This document shows positions 9,957 to 43,515 of a DNA stretch of 64,000 nt, one piece after another. This stretch comes from Candidatus Saccharimonadales bacterium (GTDB lineage Bacteria > Patescibacteriota > Saccharimonadia > Saccharimonadales > SZUA-47): positions 205,437 to 269,436 of the forward strand of contig JBGSRU010000002.1 of NCBI GenBank assembly GCA_041737385.1, written 5' to 3'. Positions within the stretch are counted from its first letter, which is position 1. Each line of letters opens with the position of its first letter. The notes beneath the pieces were generated by a model. That model was not told where the DNA came from, searched no databases, and was given only the letters and a program-made list of their open reading frames with translations. Position numbers and translations under genes: made by a program.

Positions 9957-10613
9957 ATGACAGCTCTAATATTATTAGCTATTTTCGCGTTTGTTGCACT
10001 TGTGAGTAGCAAGCAGCGTGATTCTGAACTTTCACCGATTCCGCTTAAAGTGAGCGAGAAGCTTGGAGGCCTATGGGAGATTGCGCATAATGGCATGCGC
10101 GAAAATCGTTTCGTGCGAGCTGAAAAAGCCCTTTTAACAATATTGAATATCGACAAGAAGAACGCAGCGGCCTACAACCGGCTTGGAATTCTCTATGCAA
10201 AACAAAAAGAATTTAAAGATGCGATTGACTGTTTTGAGATAGCAAGCTCTATTGAACCTTCAGCTTCCTCGCTACATAACCTAGGACTCATATACTACGA
10301 GACTGAAAATTACGAAAAAGCAGGGACTGCGTTTGAACAAGCGCTAAAATTAGAAGATAGTATGGCTGCAAGACATATTGCGTTTGCTAAAGTCCAAGAA
10401 AAGCTGAGCAATCTACCACAGGTTATTAAGTCACTAGAAAAAGCCGTAGAAATTGAAGCGAATCGTGAAAGCCTTACACTGTTATATCAGGCGTACATTA
10501 GTGCAAATAGAGAAGAGGACGCGAAAATAATTGAGCGAAAGCTCAATAGACAGCAACAAACCAAAGGTCCGAAAGCCAAAGTAACTCGACCCGCAAGACG
10601 AGTTATTGTATAA
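9957..10613 (+). CDS. TPR-repeat protein with N-terminal membrane anchor
   Basis: 218 aa. Hydrophobic N-terminus, then repeated A.YN.LG..Y....(Y/F).(K/D)A...(F/L)E.A(L/S) units. Confidence 0.7.
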   Translation: MTALILLAIFAFVALVSSKQRDSELSPIPLKVSEKLGGLWEIAHNGMRENRFVRAEKALLTILNIDKKNAAAYNRLGILYAKQKEFKDAIDCFEIASSIEPSASSLHNLGLIYYETENYEKAGTAFEQALKLEDSMAARHIAFAKVQEKLSNLPQVIKSLEKAVEIEANRESLTLLYQAYISANREEDAKIIERKLNRQQQTKGPKAKVTRPARRVIV

Positions 10614-10628
10614 ATCTATCTTTTAACG

Positions 10629-10657
10629 TTGAAGAAATATACTAACACCGGTATAAT
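10629..10657 (+). promoter_or_regulatory. Sigma70-type promoter for the tRNA cluster
   Basis: TTGAAG 10629-10634, 17-nt spacer, TATAAT 10652-10657, about 17 nt upstream of tRNA-Tyr. Confidence 0.55.
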
Positions 10658-10673
10658 AGCCTAGACCTTTTAA

Positions 10674-10759
10674 GCAGGGTTAGTGAAGCGGTCAAACACG
10701 ACAGACTGTAAATCTGTTGGCTTATGCCTTCGTAGGTTCGAATCCTACACCCTGCACCA
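10674..10759 (+). tRNA. tRNA-Tyr (anticodon GTA), long variable arm, CCA encoded
   Basis: Acceptor GCAGGGT/ACCCTGC, anticodon loop CTGTAAA, T-arm GTAGG TTCGAAT CCTAC, 3' ACCA. Confidence 0.9.
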
Positions 10760-10781
10760 AATTGTTAATATTATGTAGAGT

Positions 10782-10846
10782 GCCACATAAGCTCAGTTGG
10801 AGAGCCTTCAGCGAATAATAATCGCAGTTGCTCTAACCAACTAACT
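10782..10846 (+). pseudogene. tRNA-Thr 5' fragment (acceptor plus D-arm) followed by an inverted D-arm copy
   Basis: 10782-10805 GCCACATAAGCTCAGTTGGAGAGC resembles the 5' 26 nt of the intact tRNA-Thr at 10903. 10830-10845 GCTCTAACCAACTAAC is a near reverse complement of the D-arm. No matching 3' acceptor strand follows. Confidence 0.5.
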
Positions 10847-10902
10847 CTAAAAGCAGCAACTTTAAAAATTAGAACAAATGCACTCAAGTTTAAATACTGT
10901 GT

Positions 10903-10979
10903 GCCACCTTAGCTCAGTTGGTTAGAGCAGCTGTTTTGTAAACAGCAGGTCGTCGGTTCGAATCCGACAGGTGGCTCCA
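10903..10979 (+). tRNA. tRNA-Thr (anticodon TGT), CCA encoded
   Basis: Acceptor GCCACCT/AGGTGGC, D-arm GCTC AGTTGGTTA GAGC, anticodon loop TTTGTAA, T-arm GTCGG TTCGAAT CCGAC. Confidence 0.9.
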
Positions 10980-11174
10980 AAAGTCTCATGGCGGATTTGA
11001 ACCGAAATAAGGTTCGCTATTGCCCAGCGGAATTTATTCCAGCAACGGCGCAATACCACACATCCGACAGGTGGCTCCAAGAGTCTCATGGCGGATTTGA
11101 ACCGAAACTAAGGTTCGCTATTGCCCGTAACACGTTGCTAAGGCGCAATACCATACATCCGACAGGTGGCTCCA
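10962..11174 (+). repeat. Three direct copies of the tRNA-Thr 3' end delimiting two structured units of about 80 nt
   Basis: ATCCGACAGGTGGCTCCA occurs at 10962-10979 (inside the tRNA), 11062-11079 and 11157-11174, giving periods of 100 and 95 nt. The two intervening units share both flanks and differ in a central 16-22 nt. Confidence 0.85.
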
Positions 11175-11185
11175 TTTTTATTTCA

Positions 11186-11260
11186 GCCCCGGTAGCTCAG
11201 TGGTAGAGCGCATCCATGGTAAGGATGAGGTCTCGAGTTCAATCCTCGATTGGGGCTCCA
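11186..11260 (+). tRNA. tRNA-Thr (anticodon GGT), CCA encoded
   Basis: Acceptor GCCCCGG/TTGGGGC (two G-U pairs), anticodon loop ATGGTAA, T-arm CTCGA GTTCAAT CCTCGA region, 3' TCCA. Confidence 0.9.
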
Positions 11261-11375
11261 TTTAACACTTGAGAAAAAGTTTGTAATCTGTTAATATAGG
11301 TTGAATCATTTAATATTTAAAATCCACCTCCACAGCTGAAAGCTAAGTGTAGCCGGAAGATAAAGCGAGAAAATC

Positions 11376-11582
11376 ATGGGAAAAAAATCAGATAAGCGTA
11401 AAATCATCGGTATGGTGTGTGAAAAATGTAGTTCTCGTAACTATTACACAAAGAAGAACACAATGAACACGCCTGATAAGTTGGCGCTAAAGAAGTTTTG
11501 TTCTCGCTGTAGAATCGGTACAATCCACACAGAGACTAAGAAGAACCTTGGACGCAACGAAGTTAAGCCCCGTAAGGGCTAG
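11376..11582 (+). CDS. rpmG: 50S ribosomal protein L33 (zinc-ribbon type, extended C-terminus)
   Basis: 68 aa. CEKC..RNYYT.KN..NTPDKL.LKKFC.RCR..T.H.ETK is typical of L33. Promoter TTGAGA 11269-11274, 17 nt, TAATAT 11292-11297. Confidence 0.9.
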   Translation: MGKKSDKRKIIGMVCEKCSSRNYYTKKNTMNTPDKLALKKFCSRCRIGTIHTETKKNLGRNEVKPRKG

Positions 11583-29381: not shown

Positions 29382-29530
29382 TAATTTTGGCAGGGGTGAG
29401 CGGGACTTGCCCACACTATGCGGGCCCAGAACTTATTTACTTTCAACAAGTTGAAAATCATTAAGATTCTCTTGCGAAAGTTCTCTGGACTTTCTCACCT
29501 GCAACAACTCCGTTGGTTGACATACAAGTC
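29382..29530 (-). pseudogene. Decayed tRNA-Trp-like copy: degenerate anticodon-arm remnant, T-stem GCAGG, 88-nt insertion A, then T-loop/acceptor 3' end plus CCA
   Basis: Minus strand reads ...GGAGTTGTT GCAGG [TGAGAAAGTCC...AGTGTGGG] CAAGT CCCGC TCACCCCT G CCA. 29382-29399 repeats 29576-29593 exactly (18 nt). Confidence 0.5.
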
Positions 29531-29542
29531 ATGCACGCCCAC

Positions 29543-29573
29543 AAAATCAAAAATCCGACTCTATGGCCGGATT
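29543..29573 (-). terminator. Intrinsic terminator after tRNA-Trp
   Basis: Minus strand: AATCCG GCCATAGAGT CGGATT followed by TTTTTGATTTT. Confidence 0.6.
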
Positions 29574-29581
29574 CTTAATTT

Positions 29582-29657
29582 TGGCAGGGGTGACAGGACT
29601 TGAACCTGCGACACCTGGTTTTGGAGACCAGTGCTCTACCAACTGAGCTACACCCCT
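29582..29657 (-). tRNA. tRNA-Trp (anticodon CCA), CCA end encoded
   Basis: Minus strand: AGGGGTG TA GCTC AGTTGGTA GAGC A CTGGT CTCCAAA ACCAG GTGTC GCAGG TTCAAGT CCTGT CACCCCT G CCA. TATAAT (29672-29667) lies 9 nt upstream. Confidence 0.9.
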
Positions 29658-29690
29658 ATATTGATGATTATACTGTGAAAAGTTCAAATC

Positions 29691-29984
29691 TGACAGGACC
29701 CAGCACCAGAATGAATTCGGTGCGAGGCAAGCTTGCCCACATTCTGTATGCTTAGAACTTTCGTTACTATCAACAAGTTGTTAATCAGAAAGGTTCTCTT
29801 GCAATATGCTTCAGGCATATCTCACCTGCAACACCTGGTTTTGGAGACCACCCCACGGTCTTACTTGAAATGAATTCCAAATCAGCCGTCGGCACGTCTC
29901 ACATCTGGCGCTAATGTGCGCAGGTGCTCCGACCTTGCATACTGCCGCTGGCAGTCTTCACTCTATCAATTGAGCTACACCCCT
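29691..29984 (-). pseudogene. tRNA-Trp-like copy interrupted at three sites and truncated at the 3' end
   Basis: Minus strand: acceptor plus D-arm (29984-29959), about 108-nt insertion I1 (29958-29851), anticodon arm with CCA anticodon plus T-stem (29850-29825), 89-nt insertion B (29824-29736), CAAG, 33-nt insertion (29731-29699), TCCTGTCA (29698-29691). There is no acceptor 3' strand. Confidence 0.6.
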
Positions 29985-41946: not shown

Positions 41947-43515
41947 CTAAGCCACTACAGGTTGACCAAATACAGCTATATTACCAATATTTTCAGCTTT
42001 TACTTTAAGTCTGTTTCTTGATTGACCATTTATTTCAACCGTTGTTGATTTAAGTCGGGTTTTTCTATCATGAATTGAAGCAAGAGAAGTTATAGTATCT
42101 TTTAGGTCAAAATCCAACCCTGCTTTACGTAGTTTATATAGAATATGAGCCGACAAACCGAGTCTGCTATCGTTACGAGCATCTTTTGTTAGAACTTGAA
42201 TCTCAACTGGTACAGCAATCCTCTCCCCGATTGCATTAGTAGTTTGAACAACAATTGTCTGTTTGGCAACTTCAAAATCAAATAAACCAGTTTCTGTCTC
42301 GATGTTTTCGGAATAGCCACTTAGCGCAGTTGCTTGTCTGATAAACTTCTGCGAACCTTTTACATACCTACTACTATTTTTTGAAGCTGCTATAGTAGCA
42401 TCAACTCCATCAATTTGAGTCAAACTCTTCATTCGTTTGAAAACTTGACCTGTTTGTTCTAAGGTATCTGTAATTATTGTAGTTGCAAATATATCTGCAA
42501 TATTAGCACTCTTATATGTGTCGGTAAGTAGTTTTCTCGCAATTGATGCTTTTGATTTTAGCCTCCACACAGTAACAAGGTGATCTAAAGACTGATTTCC
42601 TAGGTCTAACGCTAGAAGTGCATCCCCGATTTTCCTGTCAGGATCAGTTACTACATGTTCAAGCTCAAACCCATCTTTAAGGTGTAATTTTTCATAAATT
42701 CCATATATAGCTTCATCGTCAATACCGCGTAGAATTACATCTGCTGCAACAAGCTTATCTCCATTGCCAGACTTTTCTAATCTTGTTGTCCACGCTTGAT
42801 CAGTTAACGACATAGCGATACCATCATAACCAAGTATCTCACAAAGAGGAGCGTAAAAATATTCAGCTTCAAATACATCCTGTAACAGAGCTGCGTCTCT
42901 TTTAGGTGGGTTTCGAAGATTATCTAATATTTCCAGTGCCTTAATAACTACCGATTCAAGATTTACGTTTTTTAGTAACGTCAGCATTTCTTTTGGATTA
43001 CATATACCTGAAGGCACGAGCCAAAATTCTTCAGGCAAAGCATCTTTTTCACCATTTTGAATTGCATTAATAAATTTAGCTTCTAGCTCTTTATTTCCTT
43101 CAAATGAGCTTCCAGCCGAAATAGTAGAACTTGCACTGCGTCTATAGCCTTCTGCTTGGTGCTCGATATCATCCATATCGTTCACTAAGGCTGACACATA
43201 CTCCTGAGTACTTGGATCAACCGATTCAAAAAAAGTATATAAAGAATTGTAAAATGCATCAGATTTTCCATCTCTATCAGGAATATCATGTAAAATTGCT
43301 GCAAGAATTGATTCTTTTGGAAAAATTGATGGACCATACTGTTCTAGTAGCGTGCTGACTCTTCTAGGATGAGCGTAGTCTCGATTATGTGTGTCCCCAT
43401 TAACTAAAGCCAGCATAACATCATCAACACTAGCTATTGCTTGGTCTATGGTTGGTACTTCAGGATGTTGCTCTATCGCATCAAAAGCAGGTTCTAGTTG
43501 TTGTAATTCACTCAT
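41947..43515 (-). CDS. RelA/SpoT-homolog (HD hydrolase plus (p)ppGpp synthetase domains, no C-terminal regulatory domains)
   Basis: 522 aa. HD motif AILHDIPDR, and synthetase-like WRLKSKASIARKL and VPVEIQVLT (EIQIRT-type) motifs. Confidence 0.75.
   Translation of the reverse strand: MSELQQLEPAFDAIEQHPEVPTIDQAIASVDDVMLALVNGDTHNRDYAHPRRVSTLLEQYGPSIFPKESILAAILHDIPDRDGKSDAFYNSLYTFFESVDPSTQEYVSALVNDMDDIEHQAEGYRRSASSTISAGSSFEGNKELEAKFINAIQNGEKDALPEEFWLVPSGICNPKEMLTLLKNVNLESVVIKALEILDNLRNPPKRDAALLQDVFEAEYFYAPLCEILGYDGIAMSLTDQAWTTRLEKSGNGDKLVAADVILRGIDDEAIYGIYEKLHLKDGFELEHVVTDPDRKIGDALLALDLGNQSLDHLVTVWRLKSKASIARKLLTDTYKSANIADIFATTIITDTLEQTGQVFKRMKSLTQIDGVDATIAASKNSSRYVKGSQKFIRQATALSGYSENIETETGLFDFEVAKQTIVVQTTNAIGERIAVPVEIQVLTKDARNDSRLGLSAHILYKLRKAGLDFDLKDTITSLASIHDRKTRLKSTTVEINGQSRNRLKVKAENIGNIAVFGQPVVA

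Follow-up and report, generated by a model that had tools for sequence, protein, structure and literature searches.

A 64-kb stretch of a Saccharimonadales genome (Saccharibacteria, Candidate Phyla Radiation (CPR)), called the window here and supplying all coordinates unless another locus is named, carries two tandem units of 100 and 95 nucleotides (nt) between the genes for tRNA-Thr(UGU) and tRNA-Thr(GGU), upstream of rpmG. Each unit is a fold-back copy of the 3' part of a tRNA in which a hairpin replaces the T-loop of the direct copy. With moderate confidence, we read the units as an RtT-like spacer RNA of the tRNA operon that mimics the top half of a tRNA and was duplicated by unequal recombination. 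The evidence for this reading includes conservation in relatives, structure on the sense strand, the precedent of the RtT repeats of Escherichia coli, and the operon context. Names given to homologues of L33 and of the TPR protein encoded in the window assign the genome to Saccharimonadales.

A first-pass annotation of this DNA had described a triple direct repeat of the tRNA-Thr 3' end, and the repeat proved to be exact. ATCCGACAGGTGGCTCCA occurs on the + strand in exactly three copies, starting at 10962, 11062 and 11157, and the 64 kb hold no further match even with up to two mismatches allowed; shuffled sequences gave 0 matches. Alignment with Infernal places the first copy at tRNA positions 59-76 of tRNA-Thr(UGU), the repeat beginning at A59, right after A58 in the T-loop, and extending through the encoded CCA. 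The same annotation gave the two units shared left and right arms around completely differing centers, which is how we find them: the left parts are 96% identical between units 1 and 2 and the right parts 93%, while the central segments, of 21 and 15 nt, are unrelated. The tandem order of two units is known from one assembly, the relatives having one unit each.

Comparison with the adjoining tRNA shows that the unit is assembled from tRNA-derived sequence. In the 5' arm, AGTCTCATGGCGGATTTGAACCGA, the acceptor 3' strand and T-arm recur as an imperfect inverted copy, matching at 19 of 24 positions in unit 1 and, when the extra G of unit 2 is counted, at 20 of 25 (z = 6.1 relative to shuffles). 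After a turn of 7-8 nt comes GGTTCG, the start of the T-loop in direct orientation, and this start forms hairpin A (GAACC/GGTTC) with the end of the inverted copy. The motif GAACC-N7/8-GGTTC, reported earlier for both units, has only two sites in the window, at 10999-11015 and 11099-11116. Hairpin B follows (TATTGCCC ... GGCGCAATA, with a bulged C and a variable tip), and then a short linker and positions 59-76 complete the unit. The first pass had missed both this construction from inverted and direct copies and its precedent in RtT; it took TGGCGGATTTGAACC for a reversed T-arm joined to CCA, and the TGG concerned belongs to the degenerate acceptor part of the inverted copy.

The computed fold of the unit RNA on the sense strand is a three-way junction. 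Its helix P1 pairs the 5' arm with the terminal tRNA 3' copy and leaves CA or CCA free, while hairpins A and B become P2 and P3. P1 would thus imitate the stacked acceptor and T stems of a tRNA, the "top half", ending in CCA, a likeness that is computed and not proven. Sense-strand folds were more stable than those of shuffled sequences, with z = -2.2, -1.9 and -2.5 (the first two being the window units) and z = -2.6 for the more distant relative L010; antisense folds were no more stable than shuffles (z = -0.5 and -1.3). A tRNA on the minus strand was considered and rejected, as neither ARAGORN nor Infernal detected one and the minus-strand fold was no better than shuffles. The predicted P1 duplex amounts to -12 to -15 kcal/mol in the window, and the 5' arm corresponds to the 3' end of its own tRNA, judged by the inverted-copy match (z up to 7.2) as well as by duplex energy, for the window tRNA-Thr, the L010 tRNA-Thr and E. 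coli tRNA-Tyr. The tip of hairpin B in unit 1, GCGGAA-UUUA-UUCCAGC, resembles the tip hairpins of units in L010 and L001.

The units are also conserved. Informative loci from relatives, designated by L numbers, were contigs carrying homologues of the TPR protein encoded upstream of the tRNA genes. The protein collection contains a TPR protein 100% identical to that of the window, whereas the window's L33 has no entry. In L156, whose TPR protein is 81% identical, gene order is as in the window and one unit lies between tRNA-Thr(UGU) and tRNA-Thr(GGU). In L034 (TPR protein 83% identical), one unit lies directly 3' of tRNA-Thr(UGU); here the tRNA-Tyr/tRNA-Thr(UGU) block is inverted and tRNA-Tyr is the next gene, so the unit travels with its tRNA. 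The locus comparison proposed in the first pass gives one homologous unit in each of these relatives and two in the window. A tRNA-Thr(UGU) without a unit was not found among the three relatives that could be read, the third, L010, having a longer, divergent version.

Interspecies identity is 70-85% for the left part of the unit and 59-93% for the right part, and all four copies agree fully (100%) over the terminal 18 nt. For comparison, window DNA shares 70-72% identity with L034 and L156 in the TPR-protein gene and rpmG; for other spacers the figures are 15-61%. This difference argues that the element is under constraint, as judged from sequence identity. All four Thr units keep hairpin A and the hairpin B stem intact along with the bulged C, and L156 has one compensatory pair change, from G-C to C-G. 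A coding explanation fails: the 72-amino-acid (aa) open reading frame (ORF) that crosses the units (10988-11206) is not conserved, and in L034 and L156 a stop ends its frame after 7 codons.

The surroundings of the units are rearranged among relatives. The tRNA-Tyr/tRNA-Thr(UGU) block has opposite orientations among close relatives, with L034 and L026-L033 on one side and the window, L025 and L156 on the other. In the more distant L008 and L010, other genes (GIY-YIG, DHH, DUF1801, RNase T, PspC) lie between the TPR-protein gene and rpmG, and the interval between these two genes looks like a rearrangement hot spot. Contigs of several relatives end exactly within this tRNA region, an effect that repeats would cause.

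Gene order in the window is holB, TPR-protein gene, tRNA-Tyr, tRNA-Thr(UGU), unit 1, unit 2, tRNA-Thr(GGU), rpmG. The units lie on the same strand as tRNA-Thr(UGU) and immediately downstream of it, inside the tRNA transcription unit. The sole promoter-like site of the operon (10629-10657) is upstream of tRNA-Tyr, and no terminator was found between tRNA-Thr(UGU) and the units.

The known system closest in layout is RtT of E. coli (Rfam RF00391), which we compared at the K-12 locus tyrT-tyrV-rttR. To our knowledge, no clear function has been assigned to RtT, an orphan since 1991 that is known from tyrT operons of enterobacteria. As in the window, its units are arranged in tandem and immediately follow a tRNA gene of the same strand. 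Each 178-nt repeat ends with AATCCTTCCCCCACCACCA, the tRNA-Tyr 3' end from A58/A59, giving the same boundary and CCA as in the window, where the 18-nt terminal copies at 11062 and 11157 are exact. Farther upstream in the repeat comes GGGGAAGGATGAGAAGCTTCGA, which matches TCGAAGGTTCGAATCCTTCCCC in inverted orientation (19/22, z = 7.2). CTTCGACCAAGGTTCGA copies the variable arm and T-arm directly up to A58; GC-rich hairpins of about 80 nt intervene, and the copy continues from A59. The consensus structure of RF00391 likewise has a closing helix P1 between the 5' arm and the terminal tRNA copy; its energy in E. coli is -20.3 kcal/mol, and the corresponding helix is weak in L034 and L156. RtT, L010 and L156 also have in common a TC-to-GA change in the inverted T-loop copy (GGAUGAGAAC).

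There are also differences. The host tRNA is Tyr for RtT and Thr here (with Met, Tyr and Trp for units elsewhere), the organisms are Enterobacteria and CPR bacteria, the repeat is 178 nt long against 95-100 nt, and the inserted hairpins are unrelated in sequence. RtT of E. coli has tpr, whereas the window units have no conserved ORF. The pair GGAUGAGAACC...AAGGUUCGA, considered as a sign of homology to RtT, is better explained by common derivation from the universal T-arm sequence. The E. coli tyrU-glyT spacer, considered as RtT-like, contains no copy of a tRNA 3' end and no clear unit; within it (L166 358-473), at the equivalent tRNA cluster, GAGACGATAAGTTCGCTTACCGG is loosely like the hairpin A/B junction ATAAGGTTCGCTATTGCC, probably by chance.

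In the passages of PMC3318445 and bioRxiv 10.1101/2024.07.17.603846 that cite Bosl and Kersten 1991, rtT RNA is described as released from the tyrT transcript by processing and as possibly linked to the stringent response. A 522-aa ORF in the window (41947-43515, -) has a weak RelA/SpoT domain match and may matter if RtT-like RNAs act on that response.

Units of similar kind occur at other tRNAs. In L010, tRNA-Thr(UGU) is followed by a longer element in which hairpin A is extended and is accompanied by a hairpin GCAGGAGC-UUG-CUCCGA and a degenerate (14/18) copy of its own, different, tRNA 3' end; this element folds to the same architecture as the window units. In L001, a Saccharibacteria metagenome-assembled genome, a unit behind initiator tRNA-Met has hairpin A in common with the window and ends in CCCGCTACCA, which is the end of that tRNA. 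Its tip hairpin, GCAGGAG-UUUA-CUCCGAG, is related to that of L010 (GCAGGAG-N4-CUCCGA type). A further array occupies positions 1-315 of L004 (GCA_035920005.1, JAMHOH010000005.1), where two 155-nt tandem units, 90% identical and upstream of rpmG, each end in GGGCTCCA / ...GTTCAATCGACGAAACTGGGCTCCA, a tRNA-Thr(GGU)-like 3' end; the contig starts within the array.

The tRNA-Tyr genes of L026-L033 are followed by a unit of about 180 nt (for example L027 4655-5147) built from inverted, direct and terminal copies of the tRNA 3' part; the inverted copy scores z = 4.1, the direct copy, GCCTTCGAAGGT, matches at 12/12, and an insert and ATCCTTCACTCTGCACCA complete the unit. In L034 (4880-5460) an insert of about 350 nt, coding for a 90-aa membrane protein and flanked by CTGCACCA repeats, has displaced the tRNA-Tyr unit. 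In the window itself, tRNA-Trp (29582-29657, -) lies in a stretch with such copies on both sides (29388-29984). Behind it, a terminator hairpin precedes a direct copy that covers its variable region and the 5' strand of its T-stem, then about 110 nt of insert and a degenerate copy of its own 3' end. Upstream of it lies a paralogous pseudo-tRNA-Trp with a 5'-end copy (1/16 mismatch) and an anticodon-arm copy, and its T-loop holds an insert of about 110 nt of the same kind as the downstream unit. In a control set of about 45 tRNAs in unrelated loci no such copies were found, the best matches having 3-8 mismatches of 16. Separately, the high-GC metagenome contigs L019, L016, L023 and L024 contain near-perfect T-arm-like palindromes, for example GGTTCAAATCCGCC ctctgag GGCGGATTTGAACC, with no detected tRNA adjoining.

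On the favored reading, the units would be transcribed within the polycistronic tRNA precursor and excised by tRNA maturation enzymes, since they imitate the acceptor/T-stem stack and the CCA end and so mimic the top half and 3' end of a tRNA. RNase P would cut a few nt past the preceding CCA, at G10983 and G11083, and 3' trimming would stop at the CCA, leaving a punctuated precursor and stable RNAs of about 95 nt. The second unit is most likely the product of slippage or unequal recombination involving the identical tRNA 3' repeats, and the tip of hairpin B would be free to vary by insertions and deletions. A helix of stacked acceptor and T stems with a 3' CCA is also the basis of tRNA-like processing signals such as plant mitochondrial t-elements, mascRNA-type mimics and acceptor-T-arm minihelices, and by analogy with t-elements RNase P and 3' processing could use the unit helix, from its position in the precursor, as punctuation. 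The units differ from these signals in having no intact T-loop and an imperfect helix that is decayed in two relatives.

Several results weigh against reading the units as an RtT-like processed RNA. Covariation among the four Thr units is weak, amounting to the single compensatory pair, which 110 of 500 shuffles matched. P1 has decayed to -7.9 kcal/mol in L034 and -5.7 in L156, compared with the window values, so a tRNA-like acceptor helix is not strictly maintained. A terminator-like hairpin stands between tRNA and unit in L001, L010 and the Tyr and Trp units, so co-transcription is not assured there. The Rfam model of RtT gives no match in 10600-11400 even at E <= 10, and thus none reaching its gathering score of 45 bits; the E. 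coli RtT units score 134-138 bits with it. Conversely, a covariance model of the four Thr units finds neither RtT nor L010, and local pairwise alignments of the units with RtT lack significance (p = 0.05-0.25). Architecture, not demonstrated homology, links the units to RtT. The first-pass description of a common fold with a variable tip holds as a description, though covariation supports it weakly, with one compensatory pair. Its suggestion of a noncoding RNA cassette released by tRNA-processing enzymes is, by analogy with RtT, the best supported of the alternatives it offered, given the conserved single unit in L034 and L156 at identities above those of coding DNA and the RtT-like build.

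Features of the locus and of the related tRNA-Trp unit (window coordinates)
Feature	Position	Strand	Remarks
tRNA-Tyr(GUA), first gene of the tRNA operon	10674..10759	+	promoter-like site 10629-10657
Pseudo 5' fragment of tRNA-Thr (10780-10808), then inverted D-arm/anticodon-stem copy (10825-10842)	10780..10842	+	lineage-specific
tRNA-Thr(UGU)	10903..10979	+	10962-10979 = repeat copy 1
Unit 1, 100 nt	10980..11079	+	
Unit 1 5' arm, inverted pseudo-copy of acceptor 3' strand and T-arm (19/24)	10982..11005	+	predicted to pair with terminal copy (helix P1)
Unit 1 hairpin A, GAACC GAAATAA GGTTC	10999..11015	+	turn between inverted and direct T-loop copies
Unit 1 hairpin B, stem TATTGCCC / GGCGCAATA, bulged C	11018..11055	+	at T-loop site of direct copy; 21-nt tip 11026-11046
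Repeat copy 2 (tRNA positions 59-76), 3' end of unit 1	11062..11079	+	
Unit 2, 95 nt	11080..11174	+	5' arm 11081-11105; hairpin A 11099-11116
Unit 2 hairpin B	11119..11150	+	unrelated 15-nt tip 11127-11141
Repeat copy 3	11157..11174	+	followed by T-run
tRNA-Thr(GGU), next operon gene	11186..11260	+	
rpmG (ribosomal protein L33)	11376..11582	+	
tRNA-Trp (29582-29657) and downstream unit of like kind	29388..29657	-	degenerate own 3'-end copy 29388-29408

Copies of the 5' part of tRNA-Thr(UGU) also occur in the operon, between it and tRNA-Tyr. The pseudo 5' fragment, GTGCCACATAAGCTCAGTTGG, lies 121 nt upstream of the real 5' end, and the inverted D-arm/anticodon-stem copy that follows it is 94% complementary to 10916-10933, an arrangement that mirrors the units on the 3' side. 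Both are absent in L156, where the gap between the Tyr and Thr genes is 3 nt, and in L034.

Searches beyond the locus were largely negative. Rfam models, applied at gathering thresholds across the window and at E <= 10 across the region, matched tRNAs only, with no RtT, YrlA, tmRNA or ribozyme; scans of L001, L010 and other relatives likewise returned tRNAs only. The pattern TGGCGGATTTGAACCN{7,8}GGTTC had two matches in 185,579 species genomes, about the chance expectation: an Acaryochloris coding sequence and L001, retained solely on account of its context (tRNA-Met and its 3'-end copy); the window's own genome was not among the matches. A looser pattern had 14 matches in JGI metagenomes, all unrelated, so the window-type 5' arm is lineage-specific; GAGAACCGAGAATAAGGTTCG is more conserved than this arm. 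The covariance model R1, built from the four Thr units, recovers the units and finds only this locus in the window; it is too narrow, missing L010 and RtT. Two further readings were rejected. A CRISPR-like array of 18-nt repeats and 80-nt spacers does not fit, as the "spacers" are homologous to each other. A miniature inverted-repeat or other non-autonomous transposon would be expected in many dispersed copies with terminal inverted repeats and target duplications, and we found one locus in the window with the unit model and one plausible relative (L001) in the genome and metagenome scans.

One explanation that the first pass had raised is that the units are recombination scars, the remnants of two serial site-specific integrations into an attachment (att) site running from the T-loop to the 3' end of tRNA-Thr. 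They might be attL/attR arms whose cargo was deleted, or miniature elements mobilized in trans and stacked by accretion, like the cis-mobilizable elements (CIMEs) found beside integrative and conjugative elements. The repeat from A59 to CCA is indeed the classical identity block, and the att repeats of tyrosine integrases and CIME accretion likewise give tRNA 3'-end direct repeats from the T-loop, here three repeats around two inserts. The rearranged TPR gene-rpmG interval, with other genes in relatives, fits this explanation, as do the 3'-end copies at other tRNAs and the L034 insert of about 350 nt with its 90-aa ORF, bounded by CTGCACCA, between tRNA-Tyr and an older unit. The inserts in the window differ from such elements in being about 80 nt long, geneless, without an adjoining integrase, conserved across species and built of tRNA-derived inverted and direct copies.

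We reviewed all 62 ORFs of at least 140 aa in the window and scanned those not obviously ribosomal or RNA polymerase genes; ten had no family, and no integrase, transposase or reverse transcriptase domain was detected in the scanned ORFs, in keeping with the earlier remark that no integrase lies nearby. The unit is present and non-polymorphic in all three relatives read that keep tRNA-Thr(UGU), with no empty site, and conservation above that of coding DNA is unexpected for dead att arms. The sequences left of the terminal copy (CCACAC, CCATAT, CGTGTA) contain no T-stem half-site as expected at attR, and a circle of 95-100 bp is too small for a plausible recombination substrate. Nor did the mobile-element collections yield a source, or any homology of the arms to the ends of a known integrative element. 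In viral contigs (IMG/VR) the right-arm pattern had one coding match, and the 18-mer matched only real tRNA genes and one coding sequence (a 14-mer scan was too short and gave chance matches only), while BLAST of the unit and its arms against GenBank phages and PLSDB plasmids gave no real match. Scars are thus unlikely as an account of the present units, though integration may lie at their remote origin.

Replication errors offer another route to the same layout. A template switch (snap-back) at the T-arm palindrome would yield a direct-inverted-direct triplication, as in tandem inversion duplications, and the product could be non-functional DNA kept alike by gene conversion with the neighboring tRNA. 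The order of tRNA 3' part, inverted copy and direct copy, with the turn exactly at T-loop sequence, is what such a switch would leave; the mirror-image arrangement 5' of the same tRNA (5' fragment and inverted D-arm copy), the like pattern at several tRNAs and the decay of P1 in two lineages agree with it. Against it, hairpins A and B lie outside tRNA homology, and gene conversion cannot explain 70-85% conservation where other spacers are unalignable. The layout also recurs in E. coli, there as a processed RNA. Template switching is plausible as the origin of such units, but it accounts for their origin and not for the persistence of hairpins A and B, and as a complete explanation it is improbable.

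A folded-DNA recombination site resembling integron attC, with the tRNA 3' end as acceptor and small cassettes captured behind tRNAs, is very improbable: the imperfect palindrome, conserved extrahelical C, hypervariable center and repeat-bounded small inserts behind tRNAs in relatives (one with an ORF) recall such a site, but on inspection RYYYAAC/GTTRRRY core sites are not at the unit borders, neither an IntI-like nor any other recombinase turned up in the window, both units lack cargo, and G-U pairs and fold statistics are equally explained by RNA.

Extending the favored reading of an RtT-like spacer RNA, RtT and the Saccharibacteria units might belong to one unrecognized, phylum-spanning class of tRNA "top-half" mimic RNAs. 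Members would be fold-back copies of the host tRNA 3' part with a T-loop branch, kept through their handling by tRNA enzymes, either as RNase P punctuation of tRNA operons or through uncharged-CCA mimicry towards stringent-response or tRNA-surveillance factors. We regard this extension as rather unlikely.

These findings extend an RtT-like construction to other tRNAs and to a distant phylum with reduced genomes, in which its conservation exceeds that of neighboring genes. They also carry a warning that tRNA 3'-end repeats are not always integrase scars, and that they break metagenome assemblies at these loci. The recurrence suggests either a common mechanism that produces the layout at tRNA genes or selection of the layout for a shared use. 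The combination of an inverted with a direct copy, a T-loop insertion and a retained CCA provides a rule for finding such elements in any genome, which opens the role of RtT-like units to comparative and biochemical tests.

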